A stretch of DNA of 41,822 nucleotides from Escherichia phage vB-Eco-KMB41: the sequence record OR539216.1. One strand, written 5' to 3'. Of the stretch, positions 4,653 to 38,749 are shown piece after piece; the stretch's first letter is position 1, and each line of letters begins with the position of its first letter. A program made the translations under genes and the position numbers. The notes under the pieces were generated by a model. The model searched no databases, had not been told where the DNA came from, and saw only the letters and a list, made by a program, of their open reading frames with translations.

Positions 4653-4976
4653 TTAAGCTCCTTTGCTTTCCAGTACGTCGATCACTTTGGTGTAGAAAAC
4701 TTCTTTCGCGCTGAGGGCGGTCAGGCACTCCTCGCGGGTCCGCTTCTTCTCAATACACCAGTAGCAACGGCACAAAGCGGCGCGGAAATAATCCAGTTGC
4801 GGGTCGCTCTTATAATGCGCCTCCAGCTTCTGATTAAGCTCGGCCTCCATCATGGCCTTAAGACCTTTCAGTGACGCCTTACTGGTGCGGATCAGGGTGG
4901 CGTATTTGTGGGCGAAGGCGCGGACCTCTTTCGCTTCCGCCGGGGTGTATTTGATTGTGTTCGGTACTGTAGCCAT
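4653..4976 (-). CDS. hypothetical protein (107 aa)
   Basis: Start set at MATVPN (GAGGA SD upstream); the longer ORF form to 5039 would run through the promoter-like element. Confidence 0.65.
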   Translation of the reverse strand: MATVPNTIKYTPAEAKEVRAFAHKYATLIRTSKASLKGLKAMMEAELNQKLEAHYKSDPQLDYFRAALCRCYWCIEKKRTREECLTALSAKEVFYTKVIDVLESKGA

Positions 4977-12636: not shown

Positions 12637-13185
12637 ATGGCATCACGCGGCGTTAACAAGGTGATTCTGGTTGGCAATTTGGGCCAGGATCCCGAAGTGC
12701 GTTATATGCCGTCGGGTGGAGCGGTGGCGAACATCACGATCGCCACCTCTGAATCCTGGCGCGACAAGCAAACGGGCGAACAGAAAGAACAGACGGAATG
12801 GCATCGCGTCGTTCTGTTCGGGAAGCTGGCGGAGGTCGCCGGGGAGTACCTGAAAAAAGGCTCACAGGTTTACATTGAGGGCCAGCTTAGGACGCGCAAG
12901 TGGACGGACCAAAGCGGCGCGGAGAAATACACGACTGAGGTCGTCGTGAACGTCGGCGGCACTATGCAAATGCTCGGCGGGAAGCGTGAAGGTGGTCAGT
13001 CTGGGGGGAACGGACCTACCCACTCCGGCGGCGGTGGCAATTCTCGCAATTCTCCGGGCCGTGGCGCGACGAACTCGCAAAATCCGGGCAAGGGTAGCGG
13101 GTCAGGGTCTGCGCCTCGTGGTGGCTCTCCTGCTGCGTCTGGTGGCGAGCCTCCCCTGGACTTTGACGACGACATACCTTTTTAA
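12637..13185 (+). CDS. ssb: single-stranded DNA-binding protein
   Basis: Canonical OB-fold SSB N-terminus ([41 protein letters not shown]), Gly-rich linker and acidic C-terminal tip DDDIPF. Confidence 0.95.
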
Positions 13186-24206: not shown

Positions 24207-24716
24207 TTATTTTTTCGCCTTCTTGTCAGTCGGGACTTTCGCGCCGTCTACCTTCTCGCCGTCTTTCGGCTTGGATTCGTCGGCCTTCGCTTCCTGGGTG
24301 GATTCCTGAGCCTCTGCGCCGCTCTCTGGCGCTTTCTCGGCTTCGGCGTCCTTCGGTGCGTATTTAGGCTCGGAGGCCGTAGCGGTCGATTCTGGGGCCT
24401 TCTCGTCCACCTTCTTGTCCTGCTCTTTCTTGAGGTTCTCGGCTTCCTGCTCGTCCTGCTCCTGTTTGTCGGCCTTCGCCTCCTTCTCGGCGGCTTCCTT
24501 GATCGCTTCGTCCAGTTCGGCGAGGCGGTTCGGATGATCCACCCAGAAGCCAGACGCCAGACGCTCGGCGGCTTCTTCTTCGGCAAAGATGGCGTAATGG
24601 CCTTCGATATTGCCGGAACGGAACGGCGTCAGACGGATGCCCTCGGCGGCTACGATAGCCGGGCGGGTGTACAACATTACGGTGATAGCTGCTGCGAGTG
24701 CGGTTTTACGCGTCAT
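24207..24716 (-). CDS. secreted low-complexity Lys/Glu/Ala-rich protein with N-terminal signal peptide (169 aa)
   Basis: N-terminus MTRKTALAAAITVMLYTRPAIVAA has signal-peptide character; the rest is highly charged low-complexity sequence. No P22 gene sits between coat and gp4. Confidence 0.6.
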   Translation of the reverse strand: MTRKTALAAAITVMLYTRPAIVAAEGIRLTPFRSGNIEGHYAIFAEEEAAERLASGFWVDHPNRLAELDEAIKEAAEKEAKADKQEQDEQEAENLKKEQDKKVDEKAPESTATASEPKYAPKDAEAEKAPESGAEAQESTQEAKADESKPKDGEKVDGAKVPTDKKAKK

Positions 24717-24761
24717 GGTAGATCCTCGTTATTGGGTGATGTTCGGGGAACAGTATAAGCG

Positions 24762-24790
24762 ATAAAAAAAGGGGAGCCAATGGCTCCCCC
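24762..24790 (-). terminator. Rho-independent terminator after coat gene (minus sense: GGGGGAGCC-loop-GGCTCCCC + T7)
   Basis: Long GC stem followed by TTTTTTT on the minus strand just downstream of the coat stop. Confidence 0.75.
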
Positions 24791-24812
24791 TTCTGCGAGT
24801 GCTTTCGCGCTC

Positions 24813-26072
24813 TTACGACTGCTTAGGCAGTACCAGGCCGACATATTCCGGCACGAGGACGGAGGTCCCGTACAGGGTAGTGAATCGGCAAGTGGTCACG
24901 CCCGCGATGTGATCGAACGCGTAGGACATGATCAGCGTCGCGCCCTGTTTGGTGGTGGCTCGCATTACCTGCGGACCTTGACCAGTAGGGAACGCCAGAT
25001 TACCGAACATCAGTTCCACGGAGCCGTCGGCCCACAGGAGGTTAGCGTTAGCCGCTGCCTTGTTGATCACGGTCAGCGCTGCGCCGGAGGCCGCGTTCGC
25101 GTCCACGTTCGCGTAAGGGCGAGATGGCACGTCGGCATTGTTCGGCGGCAGGATCTGAGGGGTGATCGTGATGTTGTTGCCGGAAACATCCAGGACGCGG
25201 AACACTTGAGGGGTGTCCGTGGTGTCCTTGCTGATCATGTGAACCATGTTCACGCCCGCGATGGTGAACGCGTCGCCAGCTTCCAGGCCGTGACCAGCGG
25301 AAACGGAGATGATGCCCTGGCGGTTATCGACCGGGAGATCGTTCGCGTCTTTCGCTACGACTTTGTGAGCCGGAGCGGAGGCCAGCGTGATCGCGCCAGT
25401 CGGGCCAGCGCCCAGTCGTGCGGAGATGTCGGTCTGGTACGAGTCAAAGCCCGCAACGTCCGGGATCTTCGCCTTTTCGTAGGCGGTCTGGGTCAGACCT
25501 GCGGCGTATTGACGTCCGCCCAGTTCTTTAGCCAGATCTTTGTAAGAGAACGCGTTCCAGAAGGAGCGCTTATTCACGCCCTGCGGGATGCCGATCGAGG
25601 TGAACTGAGCGCCCACTTGTGCGGCTGCGTCCCACAGATCGAGGCCCAGGGTCCCCTGAGAGTTATCGCCTACCGGGATCACATGGGTAGCGTAACGCGC
25701 TGCGGTAGCGATCAGGTCGGAGTCGATCTTCGCTGCTACACGCTGGCCCGCTGCTCGGCCCATTTCTTTCTTGTGCTCCGGGTCGCGCATCTCGCGAGCG
25801 TCCAATTTCCACAGGACGTTCTGAGGCTCTTTAAAAGCCGACGGGACGAGACGCTGGACGATATCGGTCCCGGTTTTCCCGGTCAGGTCCAGACCTTCGA
25901 TGATATCCGCGTGATAACGCTGCGGACGGTATTCAACGTCCCCGGCGCGTTGCATCGCGGTATCGCTTGGGCGGTATTTCGCGGCGTTCTGCGATACCAC
26001 GCAAGACGCTTCGAAGCTCTCCACATACTCCTCGAAAGCGATTTCGAGGTCCTTCGCTAACTGGTTAGCCAT
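24813..26072 (-). CDS. major capsid (coat) protein, P22 gp5-like
   Basis: Blocks match P22 coat as recalled (AKYRPSDTAMQR, RPYANVDANAASGAALTVIN, LLWADGSVEL); 419 aa; followed by a strong terminator. Confidence 0.9.
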   Translation of the reverse strand: MANQLAKDLEIAFEEYVESFEASCVVSQNAAKYRPSDTAMQRAGDVEYRPQRYHADIIEGLDLTGKTGTDIVQRLVPSAFKEPQNVLWKLDAREMRDPEHKKEMGRAAGQRVAAKIDSDLIATAARYATHVIPVGDNSQGTLGLDLWDAAAQVGAQFTSIGIPQGVNKRSFWNAFSYKDLAKELGGRQYAAGLTQTAYEKAKIPDVAGFDSYQTDISARLGAGPTGAITLASAPAHKVVAKDANDLPVDNRQGIISVSAGHGLEAGDAFTIAGVNMVHMISKDTTDTPQVFRVLDVSGNNITITPQILPPNNADVPSRPYANVDANAASGAALTVINKAAANANLLWADGSVELMFGNLAFPTGQGPQVMRATTKQGATLIMSYAFDHIAGVTTCRFTTLYGTSVLVPEYVGLVLPKQS

Positions 26073-26108: not shown

Positions 26109-27107
26109 TTACTTCTTCCGGTTCTTCGCTGCCAGGTAATCCGTATAATCTCCGGTTGCTTCGGCGCGTTTGCGGAGGGCTTCGAGTTGCCCCACGTTCG
26201 CGACGCCGTTCTGGCCTTTGACTTCTGGCGTTTTGTTTACTTCTTTCTTGGCCTTTGGTGCGCGTCCTGCGCGGCTCTCAATATCGCGGATAAGGTAGCC
26301 CAGCCCGATATGGTCCGTATTGTAGGCTTCCTCGACCTGTTTACGCAAATCCGCGTTACGACCGATCGCCATTACGACGCCCGCCGGGTCGTTCTTGCTA
26401 TGGATCATCATTGCCGCCTGGAGTGGTTCCGGCAGTTCTGCGATCACGGCTTCCGCCTTCTCATAGCCCGCAAAGCGTTTTAACGCCTTCGCGCGTTCCG
26501 TCTGGTAGCGCTGCTGGCCTTCGCTGAATTGTTTGCCGAAAACCTCCATGCGCTGGGCTTGCTTTTCCTGGTGCTGCTGCCATGCGGCCTTATCTTCGGT
26601 CCACTTGTCCAGCGCCTCGGCGTACTTCTCCGGGTCCCAGTCGATCCCTTCGTCGCCCATTTCCGGCTTACGCGGCATATCGGCGGGGATGTTCGCTGGA
26701 TCCTTCTTCTGGGTGGATTCCTTGAACTGTTTCTTTTGCTCGCGGAGTTGGGCGCGAAGATGCTTAACCAGATCGGTGTCGCCTTCCTGATCGTCCTCGT
26801 CGGAGGCTTCCACGGTCACAGGCTTGCCGTCGAACAAAAACTCCTCTTGCTCGTCGTCGTCGCCGCCGTTCTCGCCGTTCTCGCCTTCCTTCGCCTTCGG
26901 CTTGCCGTTTTCGTCCAGGTCCTGCTCGTCCGTGTCAGTGTCCGCATTGTCGCGATCCTGCTCGTCCGGGTCGGTGTCCGGGGTGTCGTCGGCGTTGTCG
27001 TTCTGGTCCGCGTTCTCGCTGTTCTGCATAGCTTCATACGCCGCCGCGCCGCCGTCGTTCTCGGTGTGCGGTGCGTAATATTTCAAAAACATTTCACGGA
27101 ATTTCAT
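26109..27107 (-). CDS. scaffolding protein
   Basis: Highly acidic N-terminal half, helical Lys/Glu/Gln-rich body; positioned immediately upstream of coat as in P22 gene 8. Confidence 0.75.
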   Translation of the reverse strand: MKFREMFLKYYAPHTENDGGAAAYEAMQNSENADQNDNADDTPDTDPDEQDRDNADTDTDEQDLDENGKPKAKEGENGENGGDDDEQEEFLFDGKPVTVEASDEDDQEGDTDLVKHLRAQLREQKKQFKESTQKKDPANIPADMPRKPEMGDEGIDWDPEKYAEALDKWTEDKAAWQQHQEKQAQRMEVFGKQFSEGQQRYQTERAKALKRFAGYEKAEAVIAELPEPLQAAMMIHSKNDPAGVVMAIGRNADLRKQVEEAYNTDHIGLGYLIRDIESRAGRAPKAKKEVNKTPEVKGQNGVANVGQLEALRKRAEATGDYTDYLAAKNRKK

Positions 27108-27235
27108 CGTAGATCCTCACTTTGTTACATACGCGATGTATTTCGCCCATCGGTGGCGGGAGTAAGTTTAAGCGAGGGCGGCGGGAAAATGCAAATAGGG
27201 GAGATCGCGATTAACGATCCCCCCAGTGTGGCGGG

Positions 27236-27505
27236 TTATTTCGTGGCGGCTTTTACGAGGGCCTGAGAGAGATAGAGCGCCTCGTGGTGCGGTGGAACCG
27301 AAGCGGGGATCACGTAGTACAGCGCGACGTCCGGGCCTTCTTCGGCGTGGATCCTCTCACTGGCGACGATCCTCCACTTCTCCCCCTCCTCCGGTCCTTC
27401 CAGTATGCCGTCCAGGTCGTGGCGTTCTTCGAGTGTCTGGCCCAGCTTGCGGAGGGCGGACACTCCCCCGCCCGGAAAGGCGAGGTAGTGATGGATTATG
27501 CTCAA
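27236..27505 (-). CDS. hypothetical protein (89 aa)
   Basis: ORF with balanced composition between the 158-aa ORF and scaffold; overlaps upstream gene by 4 nt. Confidence 0.55.
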   Translation of the reverse strand: MSIIHHYLAFPGGGVSALRKLGQTLEERHDLDGILEGPEEGEKWRIVASERIHAEEGPDVALYYVIPASVPPHHEALYLSQALVKAATK

Positions 27506-27978
27506 AATGGAATGTCCAGTGGTTTGTCGTTGTTGTTTGGCGGAAGGATCTCGGCGTCCTCCACCTCCTCGTCCTTGCGTGGGTTAACTTCGCGAGCGCT
27601 GTCCGCCGCTGCCACGTAGTCGCCTTCGATCGGTCCTTTGTAGGTAAGCTGGCGAATGCTGGCAATGTCCGCCAGGAAGCGAGTCTCCGCCACCATGAAG
27701 TCGGCGCGGAGTTTCTGTAGTCCGGCCTCCATGATCGGGAGGGTGATCTCCGCCAGTTCCTCCGGGGATGGCATCACGTAATTCACGACGATCTCCTGTT
27801 TTGAGAGAGTGATCATCGCCGGGACGTCGTTCCGTGACTGGTATTTCTCCACGCTGTAGAGGTCGCCCAGGTCGTGGTCGCTGAGTGTTACGGTCCCGCG
27901 TTTATAATGCGAGTAGCCGCTGTCTTTCTGTTCTGCGACGCAAAGGCAAACGTATTGAGTTTTGGTTACTGTAGGCAT
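27502..27978 (-). CDS. hypothetical protein (158 aa)
   Basis: First ORF downstream of palindromic box site 4 and its hairpin; no recognisable motif. Confidence 0.65.
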   Translation of the reverse strand: MPTVTKTQYVCLCVAEQKDSGYSHYKRGTVTLSDHDLGDLYSVEKYQSRNDVPAMITLSKQEIVVNYVMPSPEELAEITLPIMEAGLQKLRADFMVAETRFLADIASIRQLTYKGPIEGDYVAAADSAREVNPRKDEEVEDAEILPPNNNDKPLDIPF

Positions 27979-28052
27979 TGTCTCGATCTCTCTGGTTTGG
28001 CGGGGCCGTTCCCCGCCGTTGAAATAACTATAACATTTGATAAAAGACGCGT

Positions 28053-28071
28053 TTTAGCAATTCGTGCTCTT
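28053..28071 (-). promoter_or_regulatory. Palindromic box site 4 (TAGCA-ATTCG-TGCTC, one mismatch)
   Basis: Oriented box followed about 22 bp downstream (minus sense) by TATAGT and a GGCGGGG-loop-CCCCGCC hairpin, upstream of 27502..27978; overlaps the stop codon of 28054..28359. Confidence 0.5.
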
Positions 28072-28359
28072 TCTGATTTGAATCTCGTCCCACTCGCTCC
28101 AGTGCTCATACTGAGCCAGCCAGCGGCGGAGACGTTCACGGCGTCGGTAGGTTGCAGCCAGCCCGCGCCCGTCACTTTTCCGTAATTTGATCCGGTGGAG
28201 TACGCGCTCCAGCGGCTCGCCGTCAGGACGGAAACCGCGCAAAATGACCGCCGTCTCCTCCTCGTTAATGTAGATCGTGAACTTGTTACATTTGTGCTCG
28301 CGCAAGTGGGCTTTTACGATGCAAAGCCACTCAATTTTAGAGAGGCGATGTTTTTTCAT
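28054..28359 (-). CDS. hypothetical basic protein (101 aa)
   Basis: ORF visibly more AT-rich than its surroundings; 4-nt overlap with upstream 77-aa ORF; no P22 counterpart at this position. Confidence 0.6.
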   Translation of the reverse strand: MKKHRLSKIEWLCIVKAHLREHKCNKFTIYINEEETAVILRGFRPDGEPLERVLHRIKLRKSDGRGLAATYRRRERLRRWLAQYEHWSEWDEIQIRKSTNC

Positions 28360-28589
28360 GCGTAAGCCCCTTCGAAGGTGGTCAGCGATAAGCCGCTGTA
28401 GTAGTGATTCAGTTCGTACACGACGCCCAGGCCATCAGCCCCGGCGCTTACTGGTTCCAGCACGAGGATTGTTATCCGGTGCGTGTCGGTTCGCTTATCT
28501 TCTGGCAACGGCTCCACGCGCTGGATGTTCTTCGCTGCGATCAGATACTTGTCGCCCGCGCTGTCAATAACTGGAATTAAGCCTCTCAC
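28356..28589 (-). CDS. hypothetical protein (77 aa)
   Basis: ORF with GTG start preceded by AAGGAG SD; forms an overlapping pair with 28054..28359. Confidence 0.55.
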   Translation of the reverse strand: MRGLIPVIDSAGDKYLIAAKNIQRVEPLPEDKRTDTHRITILVLEPVSAGADGLGVVYELNHYYSGLSLTTFEGAYA

Positions 28590-28629
28590 GTTTTGCTCCT
28601 TGTAACTGTTTAGTGATGTGTCGAGGCAA

Positions 28630-28683: not shown

Positions 28684-30918
28684 TTAGACGCCTTCGAGTC
28701 CCATCTGGCGGTCTGCGGTCTGCCGGGCTTGCTGCTCTGCCAGTTCCTGCGCCCGCTGGTCGCTCTGCTGGCTGTAGCCCTGGCCCTGAGCCTTGAGGAA
28801 CAGATCCGCCTGTTTGTGGGCGTCGCTGTTCTGCTGGCTCACGTACTTCTGGAGGACGGCGATCGCGTTCAATAGCTGATCCTGCGGGATTGCCGCCGCC
28901 TCTGCCATCGTCTTGACCGTCTGGGCGTTTTTCAGTTGACCGTCGGACGCGGTGCTCTGCGCTTTCAGGGTCAGATCTAAACGCTTGTTCTCCTGCTCCA
29001 TCACTGCGGCCTTGCCCTGGTCGGCTACGCCCTGCGCGGCTACCATTTCGGCGTCCGGCTGGCTCTGGGAGGCTTGCTGGGCCTGGGCGACCATCGCCTT
29101 TTCTTCGTCCGTCTGCGGCTTGATGATGCCATTCAGGAGAAGCTGGCGGCGGCTGTATTCTTTGAAGTCCTGCAAGCCTTCGCCGTCCATGTTCATGATG
29201 ATCAGGCCCATGACTACAGCGGCGTTCGGGTCGCCTGGTGCCATCGACTGGAGGAGATTCGTCAGGCTGCGAACGGTTGCGACGCGCTTCGTCTGGGAGG
29301 ATTCGCCCACGTCGGCCTCGACCTCATATTTCCCGCGCTTGAGGTCGTTAATCGCGATCGCCTCGTCAGTGTCACGGTCGATCACTTTCCCGGTCATTAA
29401 CACGAGATCGTCCGTTCCGTCCTCGTTCTTGATGCGGACATAGTTCTCCGAGCCGTAGACCTTGCGGGCCGCGCTGAGGTAAACGCGTCCGCAATGGCGG
29501 AGGGTTTTCCCCAGGTTGTCCATGTAGAGAGCGCCCTGTCCGTCCATGCGGGCGAAAATGGCCTCCACGGTTTCGGTCGCCAGGTTCGACGGTAGCGCCT
29601 CCACCTGGGACGAGCCGACGATCTGCTGGATAGTGCTCCCGGTGTACTGTAGGACCGCTGCCAGCGCCGGAGAGAGCGGAGTCGATGGCGTGTATCCTAA
29701 CGGCCCGGCTTGCTGCACGACCTCACCAGCGGCATTACGGAGCGATTTCGCGGGCAAGTATGCCGGGCGCTTCGTGTTACGTTCCCCCCAGGCGTCCGCC
29801 AGCTTGCCGGGAATCATATCAATGTCCATGATCGGGATGTTATCGCCGCCAGACTGCGCGGCCTGGTCCGCCATCATGGACACGATCAGGTTTTCCAGAC
29901 GTTGCGCGTCGAGGGCCTGGGTCGCATGACCGCTTACGCGCTCCATGTTGTCGATGAAGGAGCGGCGGGCGTTGAACACGAAGATCGGGATCCACTCGAA
30001 CGGGATCAGCTTCGGCTCCTCCAGCCATTCGCCGCCAGTCATAAGGCCGCAATAGACCTTACGGCGTTTCACCTTGCGGTCCTTCTGGCGCTCCCAGCCT
30101 CCGGCCTTAAGCTCGTCCTCGATCTGTTCGATATCGTCCTCGTCGTAGACCTCCACCTCCCCGGTGATCGGGTTCTTATAGGAGATCACGGTGGTGTCCT
30201 CGATCTTCACCTCGTAGTAGCGGGCGATGTAGATCGCGTCCTTCGTGGCCCAGTCGAATTGTTTCCCGGTATCGATCGCCATCAGGTCCTCCGGTGCGAG
30301 GGCATCGGGATAGCGCTCCTCGTACTTGTCCGGGGTCATGCTGAATAGCTCCGCCATCCACATAGCATCACTGCGATCGTACATTTTGGAGTCCTGATCG
30401 ACGAACAGGCACGAGGCCGGATCATAGATCGGATAAAACACGATATGCCGCGTCTCGTTGTCCGGGTCGAACTCGTCCTCCAGTTCGGTGTCCATGCGGA
30501 AAGCGCCCATTCCCCCGGTCACGCCGTCGTCGTAGGTGTTGTCTACGGCTTCCGGCCCGTTTGACTCCTGGAAGTCGGCGCGAAACTTGCCGTTCAGCTT
30601 GTCCGCCAGTTCCTCGGAGGCCTGGGTGTCTTTCGGGCGGAACGTCACGGAGACGCGGTTCAGGCGGTAGTCGGAAATGATGCGATCGACCTCGCGCCCG
30701 ACTTTGTTAAGTTCGAATCGAGGGTATTTCTGGAAACGCTCGTCGTCCATAGCAAAGCCGGAGTTCGTCGAGCCTTCCCACTGAGCGCCGGGGATGCGGA
30801 CGAAGCGGGCCGTCTCGATCATCTTCTTGCGGCTCTGCTCCTCGCTGCCGATCGCGGCGCTTAATTTGTTTCGGGCGCATTCCTGCCAGTTCTGCGCCTT
30901 CTTCGTGACTCGTGCCAT
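28684..30918 (-). CDS. portal protein (P22 gp1-like)
   Basis: Blocks match P22 portal as recalled (YDRSDA, ARYYEVK, NPITGEVEVY, RKVKRRKVY) with a Gln/Ala-rich helical C-terminal barrel region; 744 aa. Confidence 0.9.
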   Translation of the reverse strand: MARVTKKAQNWQECARNKLSAAIGSEEQSRKKMIETARFVRIPGAQWEGSTNSGFAMDDERFQKYPRFELNKVGREVDRIISDYRLNRVSVTFRPKDTQASEELADKLNGKFRADFQESNGPEAVDNTYDDGVTGGMGAFRMDTELEDEFDPDNETRHIVFYPIYDPASCLFVDQDSKMYDRSDAMWMAELFSMTPDKYEERYPDALAPEDLMAIDTGKQFDWATKDAIYIARYYEVKIEDTTVISYKNPITGEVEVYDEDDIEQIEDELKAGGWERQKDRKVKRRKVYCGLMTGGEWLEEPKLIPFEWIPIFVFNARRSFIDNMERVSGHATQALDAQRLENLIVSMMADQAAQSGGDNIPIMDIDMIPGKLADAWGERNTKRPAYLPAKSLRNAAGEVVQQAGPLGYTPSTPLSPALAAVLQYTGSTIQQIVGSSQVEALPSNLATETVEAIFARMDGQGALYMDNLGKTLRHCGRVYLSAARKVYGSENYVRIKNEDGTDDLVLMTGKVIDRDTDEAIAINDLKRGKYEVEADVGESSQTKRVATVRSLTNLLQSMAPGDPNAAVVMGLIIMNMDGEGLQDFKEYSRRQLLLNGIIKPQTDEEKAMVAQAQQASQSQPDAEMVAAQGVADQGKAAVMEQENKRLDLTLKAQSTASDGQLKNAQTVKTMAEAAAIPQDQLLNAIAVLQKYVSQQNSDAHKQADLFLKAQGQGYSQQSDQRAQELAEQQARQTADRQMGLEGV

Positions 30919-30933
30919 GTTAATCTCCGGGGG

Positions 30934-32556
30934 TTAGCGGTTACTCGGCACATTATAGCCGGAATAATCTTCGTCTTTCACTGCCTCCGGTGGCTGCATT
31001 AACATGCAAAGCACGTCAGCCATCCCCGGCGACTTCATTTTGAGTTTGGTCCGCATCTGCGGCTTAGGCATCCTAGCAAATTTTCCGTTGGTGTTATAAA
31101 TACGCGGAATACGGCACACTTCCGCGCGGAGTTTGGTCATATGCTCCCCGATCCCCTCGCTGTCGAGGCTGATCATCTCGTCCGGGTTGTGATATTCGCC
31201 CTTTACTACCGCCTGGTAGGTCTTTTCGAAGCGCTTCCGTAAGAGGTAGATGTCCTGGGAGCCACGGTTCGCGAACGCGTCCACGTTCTTCTGAATGTTG
31301 TCCCCGCTGGCCTTGTTGTTCAGCCAGTGATCCAGCTCCACCGGGTTGTCCGGGAACTTCACGCCGTCCCCGGCGTTGTAGCCGTCTACGAGGACCTTCG
31401 TCCCGGCGTAAGCCTCCGTGACCTGGCGACGTAAGCCAGCGCCCAGTCCCGCGCGGTCCCACACGAACGCCTCCACGCCGTGATCCTTCGCCGTGTTGAT
31501 CGCCTTGTCTACGCTGTCGTTCGCGTCCCCTTCGAACCACTCCTCCATGTGAGTGACTACGGAGCCGTAGCGCTCGCCGTAAGCCTTGTTATCCGCGCCA
31601 ACGTCCGCCGGGTCGAGTGCGCCGATACGCATCCCCGAAGGCTTCCATCCGAGTTTCTTGTGGGCGTCCACGGCTGCGTCGAACCATTCCGCCGGGATAA
31701 TGGCGTCAGGAACAGAATCGTTAAAATGGCCTTCCCATACGTGGTTAAACAGCGCTTTCGAGAGGGTTACGCGGTCGAACTCCATCTCCGATCGAAGCTC
31801 TGGGGGGAACCACGGATTATCTGACCAGTTCACGCGGATAATCAGGTGGAGATCGTCCTCGTAGATGCCGTCCCGCTGGAGATCCTCCCAGAATGGGATG
31901 AGAAAACGTTGAGAGAACGCATCCTCCGAGGATCCGGGGTTGGCGGTGAACAGCATCATGCCGCCCGTTTCGCGCATGGTCGGGGTTAACTGGCGGAGAG
32001 ACTCGGCGGAAAAGGTCTGCGCCTCCTCGCCCCAGAAGCGACGGAAGCCGAACGCGGACTTAACTCCCGCCGGGTCCCTGGCCATCCCCTTAAATCGGAT
32101 GATCGCGCCGTTGGAGTGGCGGATCTCCTTCTCCAGTACCTCGAAGCCGTCCAGCCCGTAAGCCTCGATCCGGTTGACGAGGAGCGGGTGGACTGAATCC
32201 TTGATCGATGCCTGATACTCACGGAGACACATCGCGCTCGCTGCCTCGTCGTGGGCGTCAGCGTCGATGATCCCCCCGACGGTGAGCGACTTCCCGGAGC
32301 CACGTCCGCCGACCAGGATAATAAAGCGCTTCGGACGGAGGAGGATCGGGGTCAGGACCTCGGCGATCGTGATGTCGTGCGGCTCACTGGTGTAAACCCA
32401 TTCGCCCTTTACTTTTTTCATGTTGTAGAGGTGCTTCGCGCTGGTCCCGTCCGGCTCATATACGCCGTAGATCAGCCCGCCCTCTCGCGCCACGTAAGCG
32501 GCCCGCCCCTCCAGGCGAGCCAGTCGATCGAGATTATCCTTTCTGTTTTTTGCCAT
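30934..32556 (-). CDS. terminase large subunit
   Basis: N-terminal ATPase with Walker A VGGRGSGKS, C-terminal nuclease-like region, position immediately upstream of portal. Confidence 0.9.
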   Translation of the reverse strand: MAKNRKDNLDRLARLEGRAAYVAREGGLIYGVYEPDGTSAKHLYNMKKVKGEWVYTSEPHDITIAEVLTPILLRPKRFIILVGGRGSGKSLTVGGIIDADAHDEAASAMCLREYQASIKDSVHPLLVNRIEAYGLDGFEVLEKEIRHSNGAIIRFKGMARDPAGVKSAFGFRRFWGEEAQTFSAESLRQLTPTMRETGGMMLFTANPGSSEDAFSQRFLIPFWEDLQRDGIYEDDLHLIIRVNWSDNPWFPPELRSEMEFDRVTLSKALFNHVWEGHFNDSVPDAIIPAEWFDAAVDAHKKLGWKPSGMRIGALDPADVGADNKAYGERYGSVVTHMEEWFEGDANDSVDKAINTAKDHGVEAFVWDRAGLGAGLRRQVTEAYAGTKVLVDGYNAGDGVKFPDNPVELDHWLNNKASGDNIQKNVDAFANRGSQDIYLLRKRFEKTYQAVVKGEYHNPDEMISLDSEGIGEHMTKLRAEVCRIPRIYNTNGKFARMPKPQMRTKLKMKSPGMADVLCMLMQPPEAVKDEDYSGYNVPSNR

Positions 32557-38727: not shown

Positions 38728-38749
38728 ACTATATCACCTTTCAATGATT

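Follow-up and report, generated by a model that had tools for sequence, protein, structure and literature searches.

A probable clade-wide accessory-gene cassette between the portal and scaffold genes of Murrayvirus-like podophages, and a candidate SSB-like docking tip on one of its proteins

Introduction

Mosaic accessory ("moron") slots occur in late operons of both lambdoid and P22-like phages and are explained by recombination at gene boundaries under the Hendrix/Juhala model. In the head module of P22 (terminase, portal, scaffold, coat) the portal and scaffold genes are adjacent. T7 offers a different kind of relevant system, in that its gp4 helicase-primase and its SSB, gp2.5, both have acidic C-terminal tails that end in Phe and compete for shared sites on the T7 DNA polymerase.

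In bacteria, the C-terminal tip of the single-strand DNA-binding protein SSB (SSB-Ct, ...DFDDDIPF) docks Exo I, RecQ, PriA, Pol III chi, RecJ, RecO, DnaG and other proteins, and these partners recognise the C-terminal Phe with its carboxylate together with upstream Asp (PMC3159472, PMC5872125). The run of Asp just upstream of the terminus contacts a "basic ridge" on the partner (PMC3159472), and efforts to target the SSB-tail interface with antibacterials are already under way (PMC3594151, PMC5872125). Our literature search turned up no description of a phage protein other than an SSB that bears an SSB-Ct tip.

Here we analyse a locus in the head module of Escherichia phage vB-Eco-KMB41 (OR539216.1). 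The whole stretch of DNA that was analysed, referred to below as the window, is 41,822 nt long and is the complete genome of a Murrayvirus-like podophage, in which the late genes occupy the minus strand. The order of its head genes equals that of P22 except that a four-gene cassette and two hairpins lie between the portal and scaffold genes. As in the moron slots of lambdoid and P22-like phages, the structural genes are near-identical but the cargo between them differs, breakpoints coincide with the ends of genes, and there are a conserved short joint sequence and flanking terminator-like hairpins. Unlike those slots, which hold a single inserted gene, the locus is a standing multi-gene cassette in several genera with an old core pair, and its mobile 101-aa gene is translationally coupled to its neighbor and lacks a dedicated promoter and terminator.

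Results and Discussion

Four genes between portal and scaffold

The portal (28684-30918) and scaffold (26109-27107) genes, both on the minus strand, are separated by a 1.58-kb gap housing four genes that together span 1.35 kb. The preliminary description of this sequence had placed ORFs of 77, 101, 158, and 89 aa in the gap, with the 77/101-aa pair overlapping by 4 nt, and both statements were upheld. All four ORFs are on the minus strand: W_77 (28356-28589; GTG start; family A), which occupies position 1 of the cassette; W_101 (28054-28359), a rare mobile accessory gene whose start overlaps the W_77 stop as ATGA; W_158 (27502-27978; family C), the C-terminal tail of which is encoded at 27505-27642; and W_89 (27236-27505; TTG start; family D), the last gene of the cassette. 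A further 4-nt stop-start overlap (TTGA), absent from the preliminary description, couples W_89 to W_158.

Members of family A are 73-77 aa long, the common allele having 73 aa; W_77, at 77 aa, is a divergent allele that shares about 47% identity with the common one, and its GTG start has AAGGAG 6 nt upstream. W_89 is the most widely conserved member of the cassette, and proteins of 119-148 aa in Sortsne, Kc237, and Skarpretter-like phages are probable distant homologs of it, based on sequence profile comparison (hhalign probability 68%).

No usable match to any of the four cassette proteins was found in Pfam, PHROGs, NCBIfam, or PADLOC, and the curated defense and anti-defense models among these likewise left W_77, W_101, W_158, and W_89 without a match. 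Rfam and tRNA scans of the cassette region returned nothing. PHROGs matches were confined to a ~138-aa gene of the relatives (function unknown), the scaffold (phrog_648 in the window), and a 169-aa gene after the coat gene, while P22_portal (PF16510) and P22_CoatProtein (PF11651) match near-identical portal and coat homologs in relatives. Cargo in this slot is variable, and the lack of family matches agrees with the original statement that no function can be read from the sequence.

A cassette exchanged gene by gene

To place the locus we used a presence/absence matrix of 22 loci from annotated and metagenomic relatives, including an outgroup. All 21 cassette-bearing loci, which represent at least four genera, have two to five small genes in the portal-scaffold slot, and at least 12 different arrangements occur among them. 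A portal gene directly adjoining the scaffold gene was seen only in the distant P22-like outgroup (L033/L034), the arrangement that had been described for modules of the P22 type. The 89-aa family (D) is present in 20 of the 22 loci, being missing from the cultured phage IME279 and the outgroup, followed by the 77-aa family (A, 14/22), the 158-aa family (C, 11/22), and the W_101 gene (5/22). Family A is missing in Sortsnevirus, family B is missing in the window, and family C is missing in Lumpael, ST231, Sortsne, and Kc237. Every cassette family is thus absent from at least one related locus, so that none looks essential for virion building; the portal and coat proteins of relatives that lack a family are 74-98% identical to those of the window.

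DNA homology between the window and its relatives breaks at gene boundaries (28596, 28366, ~28070, and 27504), and with most relatives it stops at 28596 and restarts at 27504. We consider it probable that the portal-scaffold region is a clade-wide accessory-gene cassette that has been reshuffled one gene at a time by recombination. Judging from its distribution, the cassette is ancestral to the Murrayvirus, Sortsnevirus, Skarprettervirus-like, and Giessenvirus-like phages and was not inserted into this genome. The genes for W_158 and W_89 are the old core pair of the cassette; in the most distant genera the recognizable cassette families are this pair only, plus one 89-aa gene in L030. With its mapped breakpoints and a conserved linker as the joint, the locus is a well-resolved natural case of gene-by-gene shuffling within a structural operon.

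There is very little chance that some of these ORFs are merely open frames arising by accident in a GC-rich intergenic spacer. Two of them have non-ATG starts (GTG and TTG) and the region is overlapped by many spurious ORFs on both strands, but dN/dS is well below 1 in all four (0.09-0.52, similar to the portal and coat genes; 0.09 for W_77 against L019 and 0.10 for W_89 against Lumpael), each of them is under purifying selection, homologs keep their length and position, W_101 has a confident AF2 model, and each of the four starts is preceded by a ribosome-binding site or a coupling overlap. Improbable too, if not to the same extreme, is the reading, taken from the preliminary description, that the whole four-gene block came in recently from a foreign source, as a moron island in an otherwise P22-type head module, and is flagged by AT-richness. 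The adjacent portal and scaffold genes of the outgroup, the terminator-like hairpins flanking the block, and the sporadic, somewhat lower-GC W_101 gene, with a GC3 of 0.667 (equal to that of W_77), are all in keeping with such an origin. Against it, three of the four families are common to several genera at this position, W_89 is 94-97% identical to its homologs in Lumpael, ST231, and sortregn and has a GC content above the genome mean, and W_101 is joined to W_77 by their 4-nt overlap and brings no promoter or terminator with it. The visible AT-richness claimed for the 101-aa ORF is real in so far as its GC content is lower than that of the genome (53.9 vs. 59.2%), but it is statistically weak, since 11.5% of all 306-nt windows are equally or more AT-rich. 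Synteny across the 22 loci rules out a recent insertion of the whole block, and the idea of recent acquisition survives for the 101-aa gene only. The same four genes do not recur in all relatives; the near-identical contig L018 is the only one to share all of them.

The sporadic 101-aa gene and its boundary linker

W_101 sits where most relatives have the ~138-aa family B gene, and it alone in the cassette behaves as a recent, mobile acquisition. It resembles a moron in being sporadic among close relatives and present in unrelated phages, its homologs occurring in early regions of Jilinvirus-type phages. It differs from one in its coupled start, and the scan gave no promoter match for it and the hairpin downstream of it has no U tract. 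Joint movement of W_101 with the 77-aa gene was ruled out, as unrelated genes lie upstream of it in the other phages. We weakly infer, from conserved Arg/His residues and from its neighbors in early regions, that W_101 most likely acts as a small basic factor, either binding nucleic acids or regulatory. Its movement between unrelated phages makes it a clean candidate for host-takeover and anti-defense screens.

The W_101 gene runs into a conserved boundary linker (27979-28072, minus strand), the recombination joint, which consists of the last codons of the gene (S-T-N-C), a stop, an AT-rich stretch, and a GC hairpin. In the window, L012, L013, sortsyn, and IME_EC2 this sequence is shared although the genes upstream of it are unrelated, and these genes end in the same four codons because the joint is a conserved 75-nt linker. 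An extended -10-like box, TGTTATAGT (28035-28027, minus strand), lies inside the AT-rich stretch and may have a promoter role; TGNTATANT motifs number only three in the genome, and the box is missing from sortkaff (Sortsnevirus). The GC hairpin, GGCGGGG-N5-CCCCGCC (28017-27999, minus strand), is located just before the W_158 ribosome-binding site. The local GC minimum of the region (48%) was found in the 75-nt linker, not within the W_101 gene.

Flanking hairpins and promoter-like boxes

The terminator-like hairpin that had been reported after the portal gene is indeed present (28653-28635, minus strand), with seven pairs followed by AUUCUUUG, and it is the upstream homology anchor of the cassette. 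The 64-nt region after the portal gene folds at -22.1 kcal/mol (z = -2.6), and the hairpin is kept in eight relatives from different genera; in Lumpael and sortregn its stem has changed in a compensatory manner. A second terminator-like hairpin lies before the scaffold gene (27198-27224, minus strand; 11 pairs, then the U-rich UAUUUGCAUUUUC; -21 kcal/mol, z = -4.4). Its 5' arm is one copy of a genome-wide motif, CTGGGNGGATC, and the hairpin is conserved in Murrayvirus and Sortsne, with only the 5' arm present in sortkaff and Kc237.

A palindromic-box promoter had been proposed to restart transcription into the head genes after the cassette. What we found there instead was the terminator-like hairpin and the weak, sigma-70-like -35/-10 boxes TTGCAT-N18-TAAACT (27165-27194, minus strand) ahead of the scaffold and coat genes. 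These boxes match the sigma-70 consensus at 7 of 12 positions, are unique in the window, and are kept across genera, with a different spacer sequence in sortkaff and Kc237. The sigma-70 promoter scanner reported no promoter in the cassette region, the TTGCAT-N18-TAAACT sequence falling below its threshold. A family of such palindromic-box promoters could not be reproduced either, because the hairpin and the CCCGCCACCGATGGGCG box downstream of it have no repeats elsewhere in the genome. We suggest that TTGCAT-N18-TAAACT is an internal promoter. The cassette would then lie at the end of a low-copy terminase-portal transcript, between the two terminator-like hairpins, and the weak internal promoter after it would boost the scaffold and coat genes.

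The 158-aa protein and its C-terminal tip

W_158 has an N-terminal beta sheet (residues 3-66) and a long amphipathic helix (residues 72-112), in which 10 of the 12 heptad a/d positions are hydrophobic, and the family has an invariant motif, LTYKGP(I/L)EGD(Y/F)VAAAD. Homologs are found in eight GenBank phages, including a Stutzerimonas phage. Residues 113-152 have pLDDT values below 50 in the AF2 model, and the tail is disordered and acidic (12 D/E vs. 5 K/R), ending in ...PLDIPF. The canonical SSB of this phage, encoded outside the cassette (12637-13185, plus strand) and annotated as such in Lumpael, ends in ...DFDDDIPF, and among the 476 stop-to-stop segments of the genome IPF ends are found only in SSB and W_158. 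An [IVF]PF tip is present in 19 of 23 family C clusters (17 IPF, one VPF, and one FPF), and the linker before it varies in length and sequence. Distant homologs end in DADDADFDDIPF (L030), DFDPDIPF (L031), and DPDLDIPF. The tip is missing from four family C clusters and from L012 and L013, all of which keep the rest of the protein, indicating that it is not part of the core function and that a pure decoy model fits poorly.

W_158 and the phage SSB thus share with bacterial SSB-Ct a disordered acidic tail that ends in D-I-P-F, and the W_158 tip, like the docking peptide, presents a terminal Phe with a free carboxylate after Ile-Pro. The bodies of the proteins differ: bacterial SSB has an N-terminal OB-fold domain for DNA binding and oligomerization, whereas no OB fold, no PDB relative, and no relative among SSBs were detected for W_158, and BFVD gave the Skarpretter homolog only. 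The absence of an OB fold rules out W_158 as a second, non-canonical SSB. A recent copying of the IPF tip from the phage ssb gene is likewise ruled out by synonymous codon differences and by the absence of DNA identity beyond the motif. T7 gp4 is an earlier example of a phage protein other than an SSB that has an SSB-like acidic tail with a terminal Phe and shares docking sites with SSB. It is, however, an enzyme of replication whose gene lies with others of that function, the small W_158 protein is specified by a gene of the head module, and the two sequences are unrelated.

Based on these features, we infer that W_158 may function as an SSB-tail adaptor or decoy. It would be oligomeric, hold a partner through the invariant LTYKGPxEGD motif, and engage through its ...D-I-P-F tip the SSB-tail pockets of host or phage enzymes (Exo I, RecQ, PriA, Pol III chi, RecJ, and recombinases). 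Tentatively, the 158-aa family could represent the first instance in nature of a phage protein other than an SSB in which the docking tip of SSB is joined to a new fold. Such a protein would hijack the host SSB interactome, for example by drawing away Exo I, RecQ, RecJ, or PriA or by linking these enzymes to a phage partner bound at the LTYKGPxEGD motif, so that phage DNA is protected or processed around packaging; the cassette would then be a dedicated host-interaction locus. If this is true, phages copy the SSB docking peptide onto unrelated proteins and so manipulate the DNA-repair and replication enzymes of the host. In this way a vaguely defined cargo becomes testable, as the W_158 tail is predicted to bind SSB-tail pockets.

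It is also possible, though again doubtful, that the IPF ending of W_158 is accidental or has some other use, for instance in contacting the portal or the 89-aa protein, and is unrelated to SSB partners. The tip of the window protein, DKPLDIPF, is less acidic than a true SSB tip, since these final eight residues contain only two Asp and include a Lys, and tip-less variants persist, as would be expected if the resemblance were a coincidence. Such a coincidence would have to accommodate the retention of the terminus in most clusters while the linker changes, the convergence of distant members on DFDDIPF and DFDPDIPF, which nearly reproduce the SSB tip, and the restriction of this ending to two segments of the genome. 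We regard a minor structural or head-assembly role of the cassette proteins, produced along with the head gene products and either internal to the virion or accessory to the portal or scaffold, as unlikely. The genes do belong to the head module by position, share its orientation, and are linked by translational coupling, conservation of families A and D is broad, and W_158, being helix-rich with a disordered acidic tail, is loosely scaffold-like; a virion or assembly role of the 77-aa and 89-aa families is possible given their conservation. This reading is opposed by the loss of each family from at least one locus despite the high identity of the portal and coat proteins, by the occurrence of W_101 homologs in early or replication regions of unrelated phages, and by the location of the genes for the canonical ejection proteins in another part of the genome. 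Homologs of families A and B in Kc237 are annotated "internal virion protein"; however, the Kc237 paper reports no proteomics and nowhere mentions internal virion proteins, and we dropped the label as evidence because that paper gives it no support.

Cargo of a recognized kind is present in the late module of a close relative. The Acb2/Tad1 sponge, a small anti-defense protein, and the other families searched gave no match to any of the four window proteins, but in L013 an Acb2/Tad1 gene (PF24729) lies among the structural genes, adjoining the coat gene, and late-module slots of this clade therefore do host anti-defense cargo.

The Portal-Scaffold Interval

The window (41,822 bases) amounts to a practically complete genome of a Murrayvirus podophage. 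The records nearest to it are those of Phage ST231, Salmonella phage Lumpael and Escherichia phages sortregn, sortsyn and IME_EC2; Sortsnevirus, the sister genus, and Kosakonia phage Kc237 lie further away. The late genes lie on the minus strand in the order large terminase (30934-32556), portal (28684-30918), four small ORFs, scaffold (26109-27107) and coat (24813-26072), with the adaptor, head-closure, needle and ejection protein genes beyond. The small ORFs, named here by length, are W_77 (28356-28589; 77 aa, GTG start, AAGGAG 6 nt upstream), W_101 (28054-28359; 101 aa), W_158 (27502-27978; 158 aa) and W_89 (27236-27505; 89 aa, TTG start), all on the minus strand. The preliminary description of this region was largely correct as a whole, and the ORF lengths and coordinates proved exact, as did the 4-nt overlap of the 77/101 pair (ATGA); the 158/89 pair, not mentioned there, also overlaps (TTGA). 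The terminator-like hairpin reported after the portal gene is present at 28653-28635 and is kept in eight relatives, with a compensatory stem change in Lumpael and sortregn. Purifying selection acts on all four ORFs (dN/dS 0.09-0.52, versus 0.05-0.20 for the portal and coat genes), indicating that they are genes and not chance frames.

A Shuffled, Probably Accessory Cassette

The description that fits the region best is a standing cassette of accessory genes shuffled by recombination. Among the relatives fetched (nine GenBank phage loci, Logan metagenome contigs and IMG/VR contigs), every one has small genes at this slot except the distant P22-like outgroup (portal 35% identical), in which the cassette is absent. 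On the basis of this distribution across genera, the cassette is judged ancestral to a multi-genus clade. A tblastn presence/absence matrix of 22 loci placed family D (W_89 included) in 20, family B (~138 aa, not in the window) in 15, family A (73-77 aa, W_77 included) in 14, family C (W_158 included) in 11, family E (56-57 aa) in six, W_101 and family F5 (145 aa, replacing A in Sortsnevirus) in five each, and family F90 (90 aa) in two. At least 12 distinct arrangements occur among the loci compared, and no family is present in all related loci. The gene set of the window is shared by a single locus, the contig L018, which is 98% identical over the 7.2 kb compared.

Families C and D look like the old core of the cassette. 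The families recognizable in Skarpretter-like and Giessenvirus-like genomes (portal 61-64% identical) are C and, after it, a probable D homolog, accompanied in L030, a Giessenvirus-like contig, by one 89-aa gene. The same contig carries a family E homolog (around 3459) upstream of portal and outside the cassette, implying that the family E gene also moves between slots. Family D is precisely missing from the cultured Klebsiella phage IME279, where (L007, 3013-3153) the conserved pre-scaffold spacer comes straight after a 156-aa gene, without the otherwise near-universal 89-aa family gene.

The four genes had been taken for one recent insertion, a reading we rejected because three of the four families recur at this position across genera. 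What was upheld is the slot with variable cargo of unknown function; the same four genes were not fixed across the 22 loci. Composition was also a poor guide. The description of the 101-aa ORF as visibly AT-richer holds weakly, since its GC content is 53.9% versus 59.2% for the genome, but GC is equally low or lower in 11.5% of all 306-nt windows, and the lowest value (48%) belongs to the 75-nt spacer after W_101, not to W_101 itself.

Breakpoints mapped by BLASTN of the window against its relatives showed that homology stops and resumes at gene boundaries. In ST231, L023, Lumpael and sortsyn it spans portal and its hairpin and stops at 28596, just before W_77; it extends to 28366, the end of W_77, in L019 and L020, and to about 28070, the end of W_101, in L011 and L012. 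Homology resumes at 28072 in sortsyn and at 27504, the start of W_89, in most other relatives. At about 28070 the joint is formed by a conserved module that lies just ahead of the ribosome-binding site of gene C: AGCACGAATTGC-TAA, then an AT-rich stretch, then the hairpin GGCGGGG-N5-CCCCGCC. The module stands behind unrelated genes in the window, L012, L013, sortsyn and IME_EC2, and through it three of these genes, which belong to two unrelated families (W_101 and E), share their last four codons, S-T-N-C. The cassette shows the classical picture of phage mosaicism by way of short conserved boundary sequences, here at nucleotide resolution.

The scaffold protein, whose N-terminal third is very acidic, of low complexity and D/E/N-rich, is 77-81% identical to its counterparts in ST231, L023, L019 and L020, versus 97-98% for portal and coat of the same relatives; the variable zone therefore seems to reach into the scaffold gene.

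Individual Cassette Proteins

W_77 is a divergent family A allele that shares ~47% identity with the common 73-aa form; four metagenomic clusters match it at 78-99% identity. Homologs of W_89 in Lumpael, ST231 and sortregn show 94-97% identity to it, and W_89 probably has longer homologs in other genera. Neither protein has any assigned family or annotation.

W_101 is the only cassette gene of the window that fits recent acquisition. Only two near-identical clusters were found in 5.8 billion proteins, and a search of 1.84 billion representatives yielded four clusters at 50% identity. The gene occupies the same slot in four relatives, always right after an A gene with a 4-nt overlap. Its distant homologs (39-53% identical) lie among small early genes of Jilinvirus-type phages, near primase and Nmad5 genes, and the genes upstream of them show no relation to family A. 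AF2 predicts with confidence (pLDDT 88) a helix, a three-strand sheet and a long Arg-rich helix, and the conserved residues are E35, L40, R41, G42, H55, R56, D63, R74, R76, and Y84. Our guess is a small nucleic-acid-binding or regulatory role.

W_158, the most notable member, is best described as a new-fold protein with a look-alike of the tail of single-strand DNA-binding protein (SSB). Its family comprises 23 clusters, none of them on a contig longer than about 42 kb; the complete contigs measure about 40 kb (phage-genome size). The family occurs in eight distinct GenBank phages, including Kc166B, C130_2, Skarpretter and one Stutzerimonas phage. The AF2 model has a beta sheet (residues 3-66), a 41-residue helix with hydrophobic residues at 10 of 12 heptad a/d positions, a disordered stretch (residues 113-152, pLDDT below 50) and a low-confidence tip. 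The body lacks an OB fold, and no PDB or BFVD relative was found besides its own family. The disordered stretch opens with the invariant motif LTYKGP(I/L)EGD(Y/F)VAAAD, followed by an acidic linker and the end ...PLDIPF; the canonical SSB of this phage (12637-13185) ends in DFDDDIPF. The SSB tip is a known docking peptide, in which SSB partners read the Asp residues as well as the terminal Phe downstream of them with its carboxylate (PMC3159472, PMC5872125).

Three observations speak against a chance resemblance: the tip is kept in 19 of the 23 clusters while the preceding linker varies in length and sequence, distant members end in DADDADFDDIPF, DFDPDIPF and DPDLDIPF, and only two of 476 stop-to-stop segments of this genome, SSB and W_158, end in IPF. 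As to the function of this tail, we infer that W_158 may be an adaptor or a pure decoy. The family members of sortsyn, IME_EC2, L012 and L013 lack the tip and keep the invariant motif. The tip is thus an addition, the core job of the protein being a different one, and this favors the adaptor over the pure decoy. Our literature searches turned up no published non-SSB phage protein that bears such a tip. The nearest known concept is T7 gp4, which has an acidic Phe-ending tail in common with gp2.5.

Transcription Signals

After W_89 there is a pre-scaffold hairpin (27224-27198; 11 pairs, -21 kcal/mol, z = -4.4) with a U-rich tail, and downstream of it TTGCAT-N18-TAAACT (27194-27165). The proposal that transcription restarts here is supported by the boxes, which are kept across genera even with differing spacer sequence, but their consensus match is only 7/12 and a promoter scanner called nothing in this region. 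From the boxes we infer re-initiation, by which scaffold and coat, required in high copy number, would be transcribed anew after the hairpin. The linker before W_158 has an extended -10-like TGTTATAGT, one of only three such motifs in the genome, which is missing in Sortsnevirus. Another of the three, TGATATAGT (38728-38736, minus strand), lies in the region that separates the primase/helicase gene from a group of small minus-strand genes; it may be an early promoter.

Additional Observations

Sortsyn has an additional 181-aa gene (L001, 6516-7061), with no Pfam match, in the large terminase-portal interval, which is 15 nt in the window; this is a second insertion point of the packaging module. 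After coat, the window has a 169-aa gene (24207-24716) whose N-terminal segment is hydrophobic and whose long low-complexity tail is rich in Lys, Glu and Ala; its sole match is phrog_28530, of unknown function. In L013, a related phage contig, an Acb2/Tad1-type anti-CBASS/anti-Thoeris sponge gene (4733-4969; PF24729, E = 7e-18) is inserted after coat and ahead of the following head gene; at that spot the window has just a 96-nt gap (24717-24812) without a gene.

The 11-mer CTGGGNGGATC is present in 20 copies in the window (e.g., 2347, 7780, 10065, 18314, 19393, 22288, 27216, 34708, and 41136) and, at one mismatch, in 23 versus 1.1 expected (maximum of five in 100 shuffles); Lumpael (L017) has 20 copies versus 0.12 expected. 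Copies occur on both strands, in all three reading phases, encoding different peptides, and also in intergenic DNA, which indicates selection at the DNA level. It may be a site recognized by a phage enzyme, a site of nicking or methylation, or a signal for recombination. One copy supplies the 5' arm of the hairpin ahead of scaffold, and another two also serve as ribosome-binding sites.
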